A stretch of DNA of 8,906 nt from a virus. Lineage: Duplodnaviria > Heunggongvirae > Uroviricota > Caudoviricetes. The stretch lies in the IMG/VR virus record IMGVR_UViG_2690316276_000009, positions 1-8,906 of that record; one strand, written 5' to 3'. Of this stretch, positions 732-8,906 are shown in pieces. Numbering within the stretch: position 1 is the stretch's first letter; each line of letters opens with the position of its first letter. The position numbers and the translations under genes are program-made. The notes below the pieces were generated by a model. The model did not search any database. It worked only from the letters and a program-made list of their open reading frames with translations, and was not told where the DNA came from.

Positions 732-808
732 TGGCGCGCTGTACTGGATTCGAACCAGTGACCGATTGCTTAGAAGGCAATTGCTCTGTCCGGCTGAGCT
801 AACAACGC
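732..808 (-). tRNA. tRNA-Arg (anticodon UCU, reads AGA)
   Basis: Minus-strand sequence GCGTTGTTAGCTCAGCCGGACAGAGCAATTGCCTTCTAAGCAATCGGTCACTGGTTCGAATCCAGTACAGCGCGCCA folds by hand as a 77-nt cloverleaf: 7-bp acceptor stem with one G-U pair, D arm GCTC/GAGC, anticodon stem ATTGC/GCAAT with loop CTTCTAA (anticodon TCT), T arm ACTGG-TTCGAAT-CCAGT, encoded CCA. Lambdoid and Stx phages are known to carry rare-codon tRNA genes (ileZ/argN/argO) downstream of Q. Confidence 0.85.
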
Positions 809-2882: not shown

Positions 2883-3628
2883 AATTTCTTAACTGTTTTT
2901 TCCCATGACGCGCGTGTTATCTGGTTTGTCACCTCGCATATAGCATTAAATGCCTCCGTTGATGGTAGTCTTTCATAGCCACGACCACCACAACGCTGGC
3001 AGTCTCTGATAACAGGCATACCACGTTTTACCGACTCTTCACGATGAATGGCGACACCACGCCCACGGCAATCCTTACAGGCGGTGGAAACCTCACCCTT
3101 TCCGCCACACTCCGGACAGGCAACTTTTACCACCTCCCTGACTTTTTTCCATTCTTCCCAGTAAGACGGATACACACCTTTCGTACACTTTGCCCATACC
3201 GGCGGCTTACCATCCGGATACTGGATCTTGTTTGTAAAAACCTCGCTTTCAATAAATTTTTTTCCGTGACAGCAGGGGCACTGTTTTTTGCTCGCCGCGC
3301 TACGGGCATAATCTTCAAACGCATACGAAGCCATAATACGCATCACTGCCGGTTTTATTTCTGCCGGGAGTTTTCTTAACGCCGCCACGCGATCACACCG
3401 ACTGAGTGCATATTCTGTCAGCAATTCTGTTGCCCGCTCTCTGTCATTCATACTAATGCCCATTTTCCCAAGGAACGCAGAAACCCCCATCTCAGCCCGA
3501 TTCTGTGTCATGCCCTGCGCGGCCATCACATCAGTGATACTCAGCGCATCTTTTGACGTTGAGGCCGATGCATCGGTCAGGCAAGGGGATTTTGGGGAGT
3601 AGTATTTCGGTAAATCTTCCAGTTTCAT
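2883..3628 (-). pseudogene. antitermination protein Q paralogue, 3' end missing and fused in frame across the N at 2882 to the preceding fragment
   Basis: The track ORF 2780-3628 encodes Q residues 1-250 and then ...KTVKKXHRAQKAVDELVDCVAELETRVGKFEKLVQEVLR, which is the C-terminus of the 3999-4256 ORF. The true Q C-terminus (FYDALVTRF...) is absent. Confidence 0.65.
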
Positions 3629-3999
3629 TTTTTGACCTGCTCTTCATGCATTATGGGGTAAATCTTCACCCCCAGACGTCCACCAGATACTGGCTGACCA
3701 CGAACGATATTGATTTCATCAAACTGCTCATCGTCCATTAACACTCCCGCATGTGTCAGTGCATCCAGTGGTGCTTTCAGGATATTGTCCAGGTCACGAC
3801 GGCGCTTATCCGGTGGCTCTGCAATAATCTTTATCGCCAGTCTTCCGGACAGGCTTAATTTCAGTCGCTGCTGACGGACAATAAGCGCCACATCCCGGCG
3901 ATAACGCTCACCGGCTTTTGATACAAAATATGTGTTGTCACGACGTCGCCAGTAAGTATTCACCGTCGGCGGATAAGGTAAAATAAACTCATGGCGCAT
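3625..3999 (-). CDS. rusA: RusA Holliday junction resolvase (second copy, protein identical to 2406-2780)
   Basis: Protein identical to the 2406-2780 copy; same overlap with the downstream Q start. Confidence 0.85.
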   Translation of the reverse strand: MRHEFILPYPPTVNTYWRRRDNTYFVSKAGERYRRDVALIVRQQRLKLSLSGRLAIKIIAEPPDKRRRDLDNILKAPLDALTHAGVLMDDEQFDEINIVRGQPVSGGRLGVKIYPIMHEEQVKK

Positions 4000-4241
4000 C
4001 AGCGCAGCACCTCCTGCACCAGTTTTTCAAACTTTCCGACTCTGGTTTCCAGCTCTGCCACACAGTCCACCAGCTCATCTACTGCTTTCTGTGCGCGATG
4101 CTTCGCCTGCATCAGTTCCCGAAGCGCGGGTACCATATCTTTACGGATAGCGTCTTTTGTTATGCCCGTTTTTTCGAGTTGTTCAGCATGACGCAGCATT
4201 TCCTGCGCGTGTTTACGCAATTGTTCAGGGGTAAAAGTCAT
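3999..4241 (-). CDS. small phage protein, hypothetical (80 aa from the ATG at 4241; track ORF 85 aa from TTG at 4256)
   Basis: First codon of the track ORF is TTG; the first ATG gives MTFTPEQLRKHAQEML.... The N-terminus resembles those of the 55-aa and 114-aa ORFs at 8142-8650. Stop overlaps the rusA start by 1 bp. Confidence 0.5.
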   Translation of the reverse strand: MTFTPEQLRKHAQEMLRHAEQLEKTGITKDAIRKDMVPALRELMQAKHRAQKAVDELVDCVAELETRVGKFEKLVQEVLR

Positions 4242-4467
4242 TGTCTGGTTGTTCAAAAGAAACGCTCCATCTTACTGCTGTCAGTTCGTTTATTACTGTA
4301 TCTGCGCGGATTGCCGGGCTTCATGGGAGTGGAAAGCACCCGTGCACTTTCCTGGTCCACAGGCAGAAAATGTCCGTAGACTGGCCCCCTGAATCTCCAG
4401 ACAACCAGTATCACTTAAATAAGTGATAGTCTTAATACTAGTTTTTAGACTAGTCATTGGAGTACAG

Positions 4468-4833
4468 ATGATTGATGTCTTAGGGCCGGAGAAACGCAGA
4501 CGGCGTACCACACAGGAAAAGATCGCAATTGTTCAGCAGAGCTTTGAACCGGGGATGACGGTCTCCCTCGTTGCCCGGCAACATGGTGTAGCAGCCAGCC
4601 AGTTATTTCTCTGGCGTAAGCAATACCAGGAAGGAAGTCTTACTGCTGTCGCCGCCGGAGAACAGGTTGTTCCTGCCTCTGAACTTGCTGCCGCCATGAA
4701 GCAGATTAAAGAACTCCAGCGCCTGCTCGGCAAGAAAACGATGGAAAATGAACTCCTCAAAGAAGCCGTTGAATATGGACGGGCAAAAAAGTGGATAGCG
4801 CACGCGCCCTTATTGCCCGGGGATGGGGAGTAA
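4468..4833 (+). CDS. insC: IS2 transposase OrfA (InsC), 121 aa
   Basis: [54 protein letters not shown]... is the IS2 InsC sequence. The A6G slippery heptamer AAAAAAG at 4785-4791 is the known -1 frameshift site that produces the InsCD fusion. Confidence 0.85.
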
Positions 4834-5197
4834 GCTTAGTCAGCCGTTGTCTCCGGGTGTCGCGTGCGCAGTTGCACGTCATTCTCAGACGAACCGATGA
4901 CTGGATGGATGGCCGCCGCAGTCGTCACACTGATGATACGGATGTGCTTCTCCGTATACACCATGTTATCGGAGAGCTGCCCACGTATGGTTATCGTCGG
5001 GTATGGGCGCTGCTTCGCAGACAGGCAGAACTTGATGGTATGCCTGCGATCAATGCCAAACGTGTTTACCGGATCATGCGCCAGAATGCGCTGTTGCTTG
5101 AGCGAAAACCTGCTGTACCGCCATCGAAACGGGCACATACAGGCAGAGTGGCCGTGAAAGAAAGCAATCAGCGATGGTGCTCTGACGGGTTCGAGTT
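4791..5197 (+). pseudogene. insD: IS2 transposase OrfB (InsD), N-terminal about 135 codons only
   Basis: [41 protein letters not shown]... matches the InsD N-terminus. The reading frame leaves IS2 sequence at the N at 5198 and continues as the antisense of the Q fragment. Confidence 0.75.
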
Positions 5198-5198
5198 N

Positions 5199-5431
5199 CA
5201 CCGACTGAGTGCATATTCTGTCAGCAATTCTGTTGCCCGCTCTCTGTCATTCATACTAATGCCCATTTTCCCAAGGAACGCAGAAACCCCCATCTCAGCC
5301 CGATTCTGTGTCATGCCCTGCGCGGCCATCACATCAGTGATACTCAGCGCATCTTTCGACGTTGAGGCCGATGCATCAGTCAGGCCGGGGGATTTTGGGG
5401 AGTAGTATTTCGGTAAATCTTCCAGTTTCAT
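5199..5431 (-). pseudogene. antitermination protein Q, N-terminal fragment (about 77 codons), third copy
   Basis: Encodes MKLEDLPKYYSPKSPGLTDASAS...TEYALSR, matching Q copy B except for C16G, then stops being Q at the N at 5198 where IS2 sequence begins. Confidence 0.7.
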
Positions 5432-5808
5432 TTTTTGACCTGCCCTTCAAGCATTATGGGATAAATCTTCACCCCCAGACGTCCACCAGATACTGGCTGA
5501 GCACGAACGATATTGATTTCATCAAACTGCTCATCGTCCATTAGCAACCCCGCATGCGTCAGCGCATCCAGCGGCGCTTTCAGAATATTGTCCAGGTCAC
5601 GGCGGCGCTTATCCGGTGGTTCTGCAATAATTTTTATTGCCAACCTTCCGGACAGGCTTAATTTCAGCCGCTGCTGGCGAACAATAAGCGCCACTGCCCG
5701 GCGATAACGCTCCCCGGCTTTTGATACAAAATATGTGCTGCCACGACGACGCCAGTAAGTGTTCACCGTCGGCGGGTAAGGTAAAACAAATTCTATGCGC
5801 TCGGTCAT
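5428..5808 (-). CDS. rusA: RusA Holliday junction resolvase, divergent paralogue (126 aa)
   Basis: Same RusA core (RRRDLDN...DDEQF) with a different N-terminus (MTERIEFVLPYPP) and several substitutions. Start abuts the stop of the DUF968 gene. Confidence 0.85.
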   Translation of the reverse strand: MTERIEFVLPYPPTVNTYWRRRGSTYFVSKAGERYRRAVALIVRQQRLKLSLSGRLAIKIIAEPPDKRRRDLDNILKAPLDALTHAGLLMDDEQFDEINIVRAQPVSGGRLGVKIYPIMLEGQVKK

Positions 5809-6867
5809 TTATGCTTTCCACTTCAGAACACCCGAATTTCTCGCGTGCATTAAAAAACGAATCAGCAACAACAGCTGACTGCCGTGTTTCTCTTCAAAAT
5901 CTTTTACTCCGGCATGTAGTTCGTTACGGCATTTACGGCATAACGGAATAACAAACAAATCATCAGCCTTTGTTCCCATCCCTCCCAGTCCATGACCAAT
6001 GATGTGATGCGGATCATCTGCCTGATTGCCACACGTCATGCATTTCTGCGTTTTTACCCAGCGCGTGTATACAGGCATCTCTTCCCGTTGTGATTTCTGG
6101 CGCTGGAGATACTGAGCCGGTGACTCCGGATCAACGGCAATGCTGACCACCGTCTTTTCCTGTGGTGGGTTCTGTTGCTGGTGGACGTGAGGCAGTAACG
6201 CAATATTTTTTGTGCGCTGCTTCAGTATGCTGGTGGCTGTCTGCTCTCCCGGTATGATGTCGCTTTCACTGTACACAGAGCGAATTTTTTCCGCACGCAA
6301 CCCCAGCGAACGACGTAATACCGCTTCCGGTAGCGCGTCCGCCACCTGATTGCGGACCGCCCACCAGGATAATTCAGCCAGAGATAATTCACGCTCCTGC
6401 GTACCGCTTATTGCGTGACCGATGACGTCAATCATCCATGCTGACAGGTTTTGATGAGCAAGTTGCTCGAGTGATTCGGATGTCTGGTCACGCAGCTGGT
6501 TGTCGCAGTGCCAGCACAACACCATTGCGCCGGTACCATAACGGTGAATGACGGTTTCGCTGTGATGATAATCGCCGTGTGGCCACTGGCAGGATTTAAT
6601 ATGGCGCAACAGCCAGTCAGACAATGCACCAGCACCACCAGCAGCACGAATCACCCGTGCGTTACTGAAAAACGGCAGCAATGTTTTGTCTTCCACCAGC
6701 GGCTGGCGAGCGGCAGGAACGACCCCGGACGGCAGATTACGCATGCTTTTTGGTTCCGGCTCCACCAGTATTCTGCCGTTATGGAATGCTGACATTGATT
6801 CACGGCCTGGCTTAACGATAACCAGACCGAGTTCCGGTACCAGAACAGGTCGAAGTAATACCCGCAC
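5809..6867 (-). CDS. DUF968-type phage protein with C-terminal HNH-like Cys/His motif (YdfU-like), 352 aa from GTG
   Basis: GTG start preceded by GGAGGT at good spacing; alternative ATG at 6795. C-terminus CMTCGNQADDPHHIIGHGLGG...LCRKCRNELH looks like an HNH/zinc-finger nuclease motif. Position upstream of the Q-side genes parallels ydfU next to quuQ in the Qin prophage. Family assignment from recall, not a search. Confidence 0.6.
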   Translation of the reverse strand: MRVLLRPVLVPELGLVIVKPGRESMSAFHNGRILVEPEPKSMRNLPSGVVPAARQPLVEDKTLLPFFSNARVIRAAGGAGALSDWLLRHIKSCQWPHGDYHHSETVIHRYGTGAMVLCWHCDNQLRDQTSESLEQLAHQNLSAWMIDVIGHAISGTQERELSLAELSWWAVRNQVADALPEAVLRRSLGLRAEKIRSVYSESDIIPGEQTATSILKQRTKNIALLPHVHQQQNPPQEKTVVSIAVDPESPAQYLQRQKSQREEMPVYTRWVKTQKCMTCGNQADDPHHIIGHGLGGMGTKADDLFVIPLCRKCRNELHAGVKDFEEKHGSQLLLLIRFLMHARNSGVLKWKA

Positions 6868-6868
6868 A

Positions 6869-7147
6869 TTACCTCCAGATCCGTTGCTGGAATGTGCGGG
6901 ACGGACGCGTTGGCCGTTCGGAGTAAGGGAGCCTGACGGAGATTATCCAGTGACGGTAGTCGAGGCTAAGGGCTTTTTTAACCTCGCATCCGCGCCTGCG
7001 GTAACACTGAATGAGCCATTCGGCCTGTTCTTCAGTGCATGGGGGATGCTGGTACCAATCAGATTTAAATGCGTGAGAGCGCCGCCCGTGCCTGCTGGCA
7101 AAGACGGCTGAATTATCAGAATTGTGTAGTCTGGAATTTTGCGCCAT
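6869..7147 (-). CDS. hypothetical small basic protein (92 aa)
   Basis: ATG with GGAG about 9 nt upstream. Stop lies 1 nt before the GTG start of the DUF968 gene. No family recognised. Confidence 0.4.
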   Translation of the reverse strand: MAQNSRLHNSDNSAVFASRHGRRSHAFKSDWYQHPPCTEEQAEWLIQCYRRRGCEVKKALSLDYRHWIISVRLPYSERPTRPSRTFQQRIWR

Positions 7148-7213
7148 CGGCTTTCTCCGGTGGCACAGTGTTACTCAACAGGGGTTCAGCCCTGCGCTGA
7201 ATTGTAGATGAAT

Positions 7214-7474
7214 TCACTCATCTTCAAAAGCAGAAAAACCAGCCTTAATCCCAGCTTCTTTCAGAGACGGCAACGATGTGACAAATTCATTTGCACGCGA
7301 AATAAAACCATCCGTCACAAGCCCATCCACAAAATGAATTAACGCAGCTCCACTCTTCCTTTGTTGAGACTGTAAACATTTAATACGGCAGTGGCTGACA
7401 ATAGCGCCATTCTCAACGCGCACAGTATAGAGGCCATCTTCACTAAAAATTTCACGTAATTCTTCGATTTTCAT
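7214..7474 (-). CDS. hypothetical protein (86 aa from ATG; track ORF starts 1 codon earlier at TTG)
   Basis: ATG preceded by GGAAGGA. Lies between hok and the DUF968 gene, where rem lies in Qin; that is a synteny-only guess and I do not recognise the sequence. Confidence 0.4.
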   Translation of the reverse strand: MKIEELREIFSEDGLYTVRVENGAIVSHCRIKCLQSQQRKSGAALIHFVDGLVTDGFISRANEFVTSLPSLKEAGIKAGFSAFEDE

Positions 7475-7595
7475 CAACAGAATCCTTCCAGATAAATAGC
7501 ACTCCCCTGTTCGGGGTCCATCCCTCTTCTCCCTGCGCGCTACTTAAGTATTTTTGATTCTATTCCGGCACCATCTAAAACTTCAAACGCGTTGA

Positions 7596-7626
7596 AAATA
7601 AAAACAAAAACCCGCCGAAGCGGGTT
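7596..7626 (-). terminator. rho-independent terminator about 70 nt downstream of hok
   Basis: Minus strand: AACCCGC-TTCG-GCGGGTT (UUCG tetraloop) followed by TTTTTGTTTTTATTTT. Confidence 0.6.
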
Positions 7627-7694
7627 AAGTGTGGGTGCATTGAGGATGCCTGACCCATCAGAGGTGGCGAGGGATTTCTCCCCCGCCTGGTCTC

Positions 7695-7850
7695 TTACTC
7701 CTCAGGTTCGTAAGCTGTGAAGACAGCGACCTCCGTCTGGCCGGTTCGAATTCGTACCTCGCAGAGGTCTTTCCTCGTTACCAGTGCCGTCACTATGACG
7801 GTTAAACAGATGACGATCAGGGCGATTAACATCGCCTTTTGCTGCTTCAT
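7695..7850 (-). CDS. hokD: Hok/Gef-family membrane toxin, HokD/RelF-like (51 aa)
   Basis: MKQQKAMLIALIVICLTVIVTALVTRKDLCEVRIRTGQTEVAVFTAYEPEE matches HokD/RelF as I recall it and has the Hok signature (hydrophobic helix, then TRK.LCE.R). AAGGAG lies 9 nt before this ATG. The track ORF extends 19 codons upstream in frame to an ATG at 7907. Confidence 0.85.
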   Translation of the reverse strand: MKQQKAMLIALIVICLTVIVTALVTRKDLCEVRIRTGQTEVAVFTAYEPEE

Positions 7851-8141
7851 AGCCTGCTTCTCCTTGCCTTTCGGCACGTAAGAGGCTAACCTAGATTTGC
7901 CGTTCATAGATTGAGCCTCAGATTAATGTTAAGCGTCTTGCCGGACGCGTAATGTTAACTGGGGCTTTTCTCTATCTGCCTTTTGGTGTTCATGCCTGAG
8001 ACAGATAGCCTCAAGCACCCGCTGCAATTCTACTTAACTCTCCTTTTCCCGCAAACCGTTTTTATCCCCAGCGGCAAATCGAATACACCACCAGCGCCAC
8101 CGCCATCGCAATTCCTACCGTTGTTAATGCTTCAGGCCAGG

Positions 8142-8486
8142 TCATCGTAAAATATCCTCCACGCTTATCAGTCCGTTCCGCTCCAGATAACTCATCGCCT
8201 TATCCGGTAATTTGCAGTCTGGCTTCGCTTTTCTCAGTTGCCAGGTTAACTGCTTTACCAGCATGGTTAACTCATCGACCAGACGCTGATATCCCACTGG
8301 TTTGTATTCATGCAATTTACCGGCTGGCTCTGCTGCCAGCGATACCAGTGCGATTTCCAGAACAGCAATATCCATCTTATATGTGCGGATGATGTCATGG
8401 TCGATTGTGCCCGGTATGCACAGTCTCTGTGCTTCAATAGTCTCCTCTGCGTGAGCTATTAACTGCTCTCTGGTAAAAGTCGTCAT
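8142..8486 (-). CDS. hypothetical protein (114 aa), downstream member of a coupled pair
   Basis: ATG overlaps the stop of the upstream 55-aa ORF (ATGA). N-terminus MTTFTREQL... and the internal [10 protein letters not shown] parallel the 55-aa partner (MTTITKERI..., [10 protein letters not shown]). No family recognised. Confidence 0.5.
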
Positions 8487-8650
8487 GCCGTAGCCCCTTC
8501 TTGATATTTTTCAAACCAGAACACAACCGGCTCTGCTTCCAGCGATGCCAGCGCAATCCGTGCCAGTTCCATTTGTTCACCACGGGTAAGCCCGTTTTCA
8601 AGCGGGTTTTTAATGAACAATTCAATACGTTCTTTGGTAATAGTGGTCAT
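8483..8650 (-). CDS. hypothetical small protein (55 aa), upstream member of a coupled pair; absent from the ORF track
   Basis: Hand translation of the minus strand: [55 protein letters not shown]. Perfect AAGGAG 7 nt before the ATG at 8648-8650; stop TGA overlaps the ATG of the 114-aa ORF. Confidence 0.5.
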
Positions 8651-8660
8651 GTGTTACTCC

Positions 8661-8906
8661 TTAACCCGCAGTGCTTTCAACTGATGAGGGGAACAAAATC
8701 TTTTCATCAAACCCTGCATTCATATCATGAACAGCAACACACCAATCCATCGACGAACGATTATCAAGAGCCTCCATGATTTCATCCATGCGGCGTAGGT
8801 CATACAGGTAAATGCTTTTATCGCCAATGGTGTAAAAGCCAATTTTTTTCGGTGATGGATGAGGTGTACTGGCAATAGCGGACACTACCATTTGTTCTTT
8901 TTTTAA
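8661..8906 (-). CDS. hypothetical protein, 5'-partial (frame open to the window edge)
   Basis: Track ORF 8661-8891 has no in-frame stop between 8891 and the window end, so the gene probably starts outside the window. Stop TAA at 8661-8663, just before the Shine-Dalgarno of the 55-aa ORF. Confidence 0.35.
   Translation of the reverse strand, partial: LKKEQMVVSAIASTPHPSPKKIGFYTIGDKSIYLYDLRRMDEIMEALDNRSSMDWCVAVHDMNAGFDEKILFPSSVESTAG

Follow-up and report, generated by a model that had tools for sequence, protein, structure and literature searches.

Two small open reading frames (ORFs) of 55 and 114 codons overlap directly upstream of a hok gene in prophage DNA, and their layout raises the question of whether they form a dedicated two-gene module. 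The window analyzed here is the whole 8,906-nucleotide stretch taken from IMG/VR virus record IMGVR_UViG_2690316276_000009. The original prediction, made from the letters of the DNA, described the ORFs as translationally coupled, diverged paralogues in the place of relBE that could be a toxin-antitoxin-like or regulatory module, or simply known small prophage proteins. From our analysis we conclude that the two ORFs very probably belong, as neighbors, to a large mosaic family of accessory genes in lambdoid prophages whose products are small and all-helical, that recombination gave rise to the 55-aa ORF, and that the two make up no dedicated two-gene module. The features of the pair and its surroundings are as follows.

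8483..8650, minus strand: 55-aa ORF, a chimeric small gene with a near-identical RefSeq copy, WP_000207997.1 (hypothetical protein).
8142..8486, minus strand: 114-aa ORF, encoding a minimal N-module plus C-module protein, with a near-identical RefSeq copy, WP_000206826.1 (hypothetical protein).
8657..8662, minus strand: Shine-Dalgarno sequence AAGGAG of the 55-aa ORF, 6 nt before the start, read from the sequence.
8494..8499, minus strand: Shine-Dalgarno sequence AAGGGG of the 114-aa ORF, 7 nt before the start, within the HNH-derived tail of the 55-aa ORF and inherited with it.
8661..8906, minus strand: upstream 87-aa gene, near-identical to RefSeq WP_000224227.1 (phrog_1714) and cut by the end of the window.
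7695..8020, minus strand: hok/mok/sok type I toxin-antitoxin cassette (Pfam Hok and Rfam sok), an independent moron outside the pair.
7695-7907, minus strand: hok/mok ORF (Pfam Hok, E 3e-23), directly downstream of the pair.
7845-8020: sok RNA (Rfam RF01794, 112 bits).
7626-7609: terminator-like hairpin.

Both ORFs, the overlap and the two Shine-Dalgarno sequences were found where they had been placed, with the ATG of the 114-aa ORF (8486-8484) lying on the TGA of the 55-aa ORF (8485-8483). The paralogy that had been proposed holds for the N-terminal ~50 residues: BLASTP aligned the two proteins with 18/54 identities (E 1e-5) at their N-termini only, and both match the PHROG profiles phrog_660, 60, 3323 and 5117. 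Neither ORF gave a match in scans of Pfam (E ≤ 1), NCBIfam or PADLOC, and a sequence search of the PDB returned chance-level matches only (E ≥ 0.4). Near-identical copies, at about 99.8% DNA identity across the pair, have RefSeq entries already and occur in sequenced phages as well as in hundreds of genomes. The genes are thus known as sequences and ordinary in kind, and the fallback reading of known small prophage proteins was essentially right, the products being RefSeq hypothetical proteins that belong to PHROG families of unknown function. A promoter-like site was sought between the upstream gene and the pair and none was found; because of this, both genes are presumably read within the prophage early operon.

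The position of the pair was also as described. The gene order of the K-12 Qin prophage in NC_000913.3 is ydfT-ydfU-rem-hokD-relE-relB, and that of the window is Q-rusA-DUF968-(92 aa)-(87 aa)-hok-(114 aa)-(55 aa), so the two ORFs do occupy the slot equivalent to relBE next to hokD. They resemble RelB and RelE in neither sequence nor fold, again in line with the original reading. The hok cassette is an insertion independent of the pair, and the 114-aa gene adjoins this hok in only 296 of the 563 genomes that carry it. Homology to the hokW cassette of Stx phages ends at ~8145, where the 114-aa gene has its stop codon, and in STEC711 and ArgO145 a parDE cassette stands in the place of hok. The site just 3' of the C-module gene repeatedly takes toxin-antitoxin morons (hok/sok, parDE).

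Three parts can be distinguished in the 55-aa ORF.

8527..8650, minus strand: N-module A (codons 1-41), the 5' module common to Eaa, DUF550, DUF551 and dATP/dGTP-pyrophosphohydrolase genes.
8524..8530, minus strand: recombination breakpoint at the microhomology CCGGTTG (codons P41-V42-V43), placed by the limits of homology on both sides.
8483..8530, minus strand: tail and ATGA junction; both stem from a gene for a 121-aa HNH endonuclease (3' end).

On the N-terminal side, the 55-aa ORF matches phrog_3323 (E 1e-19), phrog_60 (E 4e-18) and phrog_660 (E 4e-10), and its product is named 'EaA protein' in the record of phage vB_EcoS-689R5. A 164-nt query of the gene matched 1338 of 5426 complete E. 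coli genomes by megablast, mostly through N-module A, which places a match in about a quarter of these genomes. Sampled partial matches were 88-99% identical and ended at ~8524-8537, and positions 8524-8650 (codons 1 to about 42) correspond to the 5' ends of genes annotated as DUF550, DUF551, dATP/dGTP pyrophosphohydrolase or hypothetical. At the protein level, homologues of N-module A pass into many unrelated continuations right after EAEP, including DUF550 and DUF551 (NCBI names) and 'Eaa protein'.

On the other side, positions 8487-8533 align with an HNH endonuclease gene at its 3' end (megablast, 5426 complete E. coli genomes). In STEC711, the gene of a 121-aa HNH endonuclease (WP_001229294.1) lies before the 114-aa gene and overlaps it by ATGA in the same way, and its DNA is identical to that of the window from CCGGTTGTG across the junction into the 114-aa gene. 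The last 15 codons of the 55-aa ORF are DNA-identical to the end of the HNH gene, and residues 31-54 match phrog_2118 (HNH endonuclease) with an E value of 0.002. The HNH catalytic motif (HADH…N…H) is absent from the 55-aa ORF, which keeps only those last 15 codons. In the complete E. coli genomes searched by megablast, homology to N-module genes ends at ~8524 and homology to the HNH arrangement ends at ~8533. These alignments identify the 55-aa ORF as codons 1-41 of an Eaa-type gene joined, at a microhomology of 7 nt, to the end of the HNH gene. Along with the tail, the HNH gene supplied the stop codon, the second Shine-Dalgarno sequence and the ATGA coupling. The same tail is found behind two other N-module variants, P0230 (54 aa) and P0240 (61 aa), which is the expected product of exchange between conserved module flanks. 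Parsimony suggests that the HNH arrangement is ancestral and the 55-aa arrangement derived.

The second ORF is built from two modules, both on the minus strand.

8322..8486, minus strand: N-module B (residues 1-55, starting MTTFTREQL), a predicted helical hairpin (H6-22 + H30-51).
8145..8291, minus strand: C-module (residues 66-114), with predicted helices at 66-87, 93-103 and 109-113.

The 114-aa protein has its N-module and C-module joined by a linker of 10 residues; an enzymatic cargo is absent. It matches phrog_660 with an E value of 8e-43 and is 99% identical to gp10 of phage ArgO145. An AlphaFold2 model (pLDDT 82.7) is all-helical, and comparison of this model with known folds returned generic helical-bundle matches only and no specific fold. 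N-module B also heads the DUF551 proteins P0064 and P0066. The C-module is nearly invariant across the family and is common to phrog_924, 8171 and 30109; the gp45/gp45.1 region of phage N15 matches it as well.

Both modules belong to a much larger set of proteins. A profile search of 1.84 billion representatives recovered 768 clusters (50% identity) at E ≤ 0.001, and the members share a three-part plan. The first part is an N-terminal helical hairpin with conserved ends (MTTxTKEQL...) and a variable interior, of which there are many variants. The second is a variable middle or cargo of 0 to about 250 residues, for example DUF551 or a DUF550/MazG-like dATP/dGTP pyrophosphohydrolase. The third, often present, is the nearly invariant C-terminal module (ELTMLVKQL...). 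The C-module ends P0267, a bona fide Ead_Ea22 protein (PF13935), and is present in P0361, which has a PF04447 dATP/dGTP pyrophosphohydrolase as cargo. In a 92-aa member (P0248) the N-module is fused straight to the C-module, and in a 50-aa member (P0315) the C-module stands alone. Annotators name the family loosely 'Eaa' or 'Ea22', and PHROGs 660, 3323 and 60 correspond to it. The literature on Eaa, DUF550 and DUF551 that we searched yielded nothing on the N-module or the C-module, and the relevant papers concern Ea22 proper. The N-module and the C-module are widespread domains without Pfam coverage.

The original prediction had also placed an 80-aa ORF (3999-4241) in the same family, as a sign that a small phage module is used at more than one position. 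Use at several positions is supported by a 146-aa 'Ea22 protein' gene two genes upstream of the pair in vB_EcoS-689R5 and by the Eaa/DUF550/DUF551 genes, but membership of the 80-aa ORF in the family is not supported. Its alignments were weak and short: BLASTP matched it to the 114-aa ORF over 16/33 residues (E 6e-4) and gave no alignment with the 55-aa ORF, and hhalign against the family profile returned a probability of 9% over 19 columns. Its PHROG matches (phrog_2565, 2539) are unlike those of the pair. Complete genomes have it between a gene for a replicative helicase and rusA, and in the window, which has single-N joins at 2882 and 5198, it is on a different scaffold piece from the pair.

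Occurrence was counted in 5426 complete E. coli genomes at a query coverage of at least 80%. The 114-aa gene was present in 563/5426, the pair in 324, the 55-aa gene in 318, the 114-aa gene together with this hok in 296, and hok, the pair and the upstream gene together in 241. Thus about 240 of the 563 genomes with the 114-aa gene lack the 55-aa gene, and in most sampled cases of this kind the HNH gene lies upstream. The 55-aa gene is essentially always accompanied by the 114-aa gene, as its tail is part of the junction between them. In ArgO145, an inducible Stx2a phage, the HNH-114 arrangement corresponds to gp11-gp10 in the early-left operon, which is read towards xis and int, and is followed by the parDE cassette on the opposite strand. 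In the STEC711 prophage, this HNH-114-parDE block is located in the region close to Q. A further arrangement is provided by a 101-aa protein (P0031) in which N-module A is joined, at IALASLAAEP, to the rest of the 114-aa protein, which makes it a recombinant of the pair's two ORFs. It takes the slot of the pair at two loci (L005, L006), with the 87-aa gene upstream and hok downstream, and is also found beside an integrase (L007). The upstream 87-aa gene travels both with the pair and with the recombinant. The two genes are accordingly not co-conserved as a two-gene unit: the larger occurs in 563 genomes and the pair in 324, the larger has the HNH gene as another partner, and a single recombinant gene can replace both. 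This is an outcome that the original prediction itself had named as grounds for its rejection.

Together these observations favor the following account. Recombination at conserved module borders reshuffles N-module, cargo and C-module; the 114-aa gene is a minimal version of the family, and the 55-aa gene is a by-product of recombination between an Eaa-type gene and the HNH gene that normally precedes the 114-aa gene. The 114-aa protein may be a small oligomerizing adaptor like Ea22 that acts on phage development or host physiology through the C-module, which would then be its functional end. We offer this Ea22-like mechanism tentatively, as a possibility drawn from analogy rather than as the expected outcome. 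The 55-aa product would be either inert or able to interact through its N-hairpin only.

A different view of the short product is that its N-hairpin is under selection and pairs with that of the 114-aa protein, or with those of further N-module proteins in the same prophage, and so modulates oligomeric state or activity in the manner of a dominant-negative or specificity factor. Several observations fit such a hetero-oligomer. The N-modules are homologous helical hairpins, a prophage may carry several N-module genes (for example the 146-aa gene two genes upstream in L002), and the Shine-Dalgarno sequence of the 55-aa ORF is strong. ORFs made of an N-module alone are common and unbroken, and the HNH-derived tail stands behind three N-module variants (P0122, P0230, P0240). 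The 55-aa ORF itself is intact in about 318 genomes, and this intactness, with the recurrence of the tail in P0230 and P0240, could mean that the short form has been selected and is not a passive remnant. Its copies are 96-100% identical, so that their diversity is too low for dN/dS. An AlphaFold2 model of a natural fusion of the 55-aa and 114-aa proteins (P0001), taken as a proxy for the heterodimer, reached a pLDDT of 39, too low to be informative. However, in-frame swaps of the interior are expected from recombination between coding flanks and need no selection on the short product, and both the HNH arrangement and the 101-aa recombinant indicate that the pair is dispensable. We consider selected pairing of this kind unlikely.

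The same idea can be extended to the family as a whole. The N-hairpin and the C-module might be the ends of a dedicated cargo-shuffling scaffold by which temperate phages of enterobacteria display diverse effector domains, with the interior of the hairpin setting oligomerization or partner specificity and stand-alone N-hairpins such as the 55-aa ORF acting as selected modulators of co-resident members. Such a scaffold would amount to two new and very widespread domains that Pfam lacks and that follow their own regulatory logic, and we regard it as decidedly unlikely.

A further reading of the locus is a type II toxin-antitoxin-like module in which a 55-aa antitoxin neutralizes a toxic 114-aa protein, the two being coupled and placed beside hokD where relBE would be. 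In its favor, a small gene lies upstream of a larger one, the two overlap by ATGA and have strong Shine-Dalgarno sequences, they stand where K-12 Qin has relBE, the 55-aa gene in full length hardly ever occurs without the 114-aa gene (318 versus 324 genomes), and the slot is a hotspot for such systems, with hok/sok here and parDE elsewhere. Against it, the ATGA coupling comes from the HNH gene, and of the ~240/563 genomes that have the 114-aa gene but not the 55-aa gene, most of those sampled carry the HNH gene with an identical junction. At the same locus, the 101-aa recombinant removes the separate 55-aa gene altogether, and both modules occur in hundreds of other architectures. Furthermore, an inducible Stx phage carries the 114-aa gene and lacks the 55-aa gene, which implies that the 114-aa gene alone is not toxic.

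The proteins themselves do not look like toxin and antitoxin. Neither ORF matches a toxin-antitoxin or defense family in Pfam, NCBIfam or PADLOC. In profile scans and in the AlphaFold2 model, the 114-aa protein belongs to no known toxin family or fold (RelE/ParE, MazF, VapC and others); the alpha/beta fold of RelE and ParE is absent and the model is all-helical. The 55-aa protein has no antitoxin DNA-binding domain of the RHH, HTH, AbrB or Phd/YefM type and consists of an Eaa-type N-hairpin with a 14-residue tail from the HNH gene. The proposal of a toxin-antitoxin or regulatory pair thus fails both on co-conservation and on signatures of family and fold, and we consider the toxin-antitoxin reading highly improbable. 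Finally, it is hard to credit that the two ORFs are halves of a ~168-aa gene broken by a frameshift: fused versions of 167, 168 and 137 aa do exist (P0001, P0002, P0024), yet these rare forms (1-3 member sequences, obtained from run assemblies) are unlike each other and each need their own indel or frameshift, while the separated ATGA state is the majority (324 genomes), its junction is identical to the HNH-114 junction, and a fusion would have two tandem N-modules, a layout unseen elsewhere in the family.

Module shuffling therefore remains our preferred explanation of the locus, and it removes a false lead, as a two-gene cassette coupled by ATGA beside hok looks like a toxin-antitoxin system but here arose by module shuffling. 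The case is a caution for predictions of toxin-antitoxin systems or defense islands that rest on 'guilt by layout', and small 'orphan' ORFs of prophage early regions can be in-frame recombination chimeras. Our findings on the pair leave the current understanding of phage biology unchanged. The points of modest interest are the 55-aa chimera, the two modules without a Pfam entry, and the landing of toxin-antitoxin morons 3' of the C-module gene.

Among known families, the Ea22/ead-like and the Eaa/DUF550/DUF551 proteins are the closest. Ea22 of lambda and Phi24B, encoded in the exo-xis region, is a pro-lysogenic, modular early protein with a tetrameric coiled coil and a dimeric C-terminal domain, and the C-terminal domain is thought to contact a host factor (PMC7093339, PMC10834534). 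Like the pair, the Ea22/ead-like genes (PF13935) are early-operon accessory genes of lambdoid phages with high mosaic diversity, and their modular products begin with a short conserved stretch, are helical in the middle and end in a C-terminal domain that can be exchanged. The genes described here lie among ead/Ea22-like neighbors at three loci (L001, L003, L007) and in ArgO145. The two groups are further linked by the PF13935 protein P0267, which ends in the C-module of the 114-aa protein, and some annotators label relatives of the N-module 'Ea22 protein' or 'EaA protein'. In contrast, the N-terminus of Ea22 reads ..INYQALREAAE.. and that of the pair MTTxTKEQL..., and the C-module is unlike the C-terminal domain of lambda Ea22; the Ea22-type proteins in L001 and L002 end in ...GIRIKGE. 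In a Pfam search at E ≤ 1, neither ORF matched PF13935, a profile that the same type of search detects in P0267.

The Eaa/DUF550/DUF551 proteins (PF04447, PF04448) of P22-like and lambdoid prophages share N-module A with the 55-aa ORF, at 88-99% DNA identity in the sampled matches and with the same junction. They differ in that the 55-aa ORF is an N-module without DUF550 or DUF551 and the 114-aa ORF is N-module B plus the C-module with no cargo; neither ORF matched PF04447 or PF04448 in Pfam. Since the pair fails the defining Pfam profiles of Ea22 and of Eaa/DUF550/DUF551, it is not filed under either, and by its profile matches its place is in PHROGs 660, 3323 and 60, of unknown function.

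With RelBE of K-12 Qin and other type II pairs, the two ORFs share a place directly upstream of hokD and the layout of two genes with overlapping stop and start codons. Unlike those pairs, the partners here are paralogues of each other, are not co-conserved, have no similarity to them in sequence or fold, and take their junction from an unrelated HNH gene.

The locus can also be compared with the modular theory of Susskind and Botstein. In lambdoid mosaicism, recombination at module boundaries, or 'linkers', depends on conserved border sequences that flank unrelated interiors. At the locus and in the family described here, the borders lie not between genes but inside the coding sequence, at the ends of protein domains, and the 101-aa recombinant (P0031), the direct fusion P0248 and the 55-aa chimera are the hybrid products that the theory would lead one to expect.

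The site directly downstream of the 114-aa gene, whose nearly invariant C-terminal part (residues 66-114) we call the C-module, forms an insertion hotspot for toxin-antitoxin cassettes and morons. The cassettes found at or near this position are as follows.

Window, 7907-8145: hok/sok, downstream of the 114-aa gene
Strain STEC711 (locus L003), 3234-3796: parDE, downstream of the 114-aa gene, opposite strand
Inducible Stx2a phage ArgO145 (locus L008), 5550-6061: parDE, downstream of the 114-aa gene, opposite strand
K-12 Qin prophage: relBE and hokD, same site
Strain PRO_A-1490 (locus L001), 8013-8851: ImmA/IrrE peptidase and HTH pair, between hok and the DUF968 gene

The other side of the pair formed by the 55-aa and 114-aa ORFs carries a further relative in the related phage vB_EcoS-689R5. 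Two genes upstream of the pair (8319-8759 of locus L002), this phage encodes a third paralogue of 146 aa, annotated as 'Ea22 protein' and beginning [43 protein letters not shown]..., with the same architecture around the N-terminal helical hairpin as the pair. Only a fragment of the 146-aa paralogue is present in strain PRO_A-1490, as a pseudogene remnant at 10641-10767.

The window is a scaffold, with one run of 46 N (885-930) and single-N joins at 2882 and 5198. Three blocks (2177-2476, 3396-3695 and 5199-5498) are 95-98% identical, and each contains 5'-terminal sequence of the Q antiterminator gene and 3'-terminal sequence of rusA. Because these near-identical blocks adjoin scaffold joins, segments 931-2881, 2883-5197 and 5199-8906 appear to be individual contigs, derived from similar lambdoid prophages and butted together, rather than a true tandem triplication. 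Three further features of the window are listed below.

735-808, minus strand: tRNA gene (Rfam RF00005, 68 bits), adjoining the 46-N gap
4423-4833: InsC-like ORF of the partial element described below
Start at 4791: InsD-like ORF of the same element

The tRNA gene fits with the cluster of tRNA genes that related prophages have downstream of Q, represented in PRO_A-1490 by tRNA-Arg and tRNA-Ile. The region upstream of the 80-aa ORF (3999-4241) is broken by a partial, putatively IS2-like element (~4375-5197), assigned by its InsC sequence. Complete genomes have a replicative DNA helicase gene at this position.

The C-module was also found in other phages. Actinobacillus phage vB_Apl-pPE4 (PP818812.1, 12972-13649), a record attributed to Actinobacillus pleuropneumoniae, contains an E. 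coli-type hok cassette together with the 114-aa gene's C-module end, and the DNA identity is 96.6%. So close a match is surprising in a phage of Pasteurellaceae; it may be due to contamination, to a wrongly assigned host or to a recent transfer. Phage N15, a linear plasmid-prophage, encodes the C-module in its gp45/gp45.1 region (AF064539.1/NC_001901.1, 38756-38890; 71% identity over 45 aa), and therefore the range of the C-module is wider than the integrating lambdoid phages.
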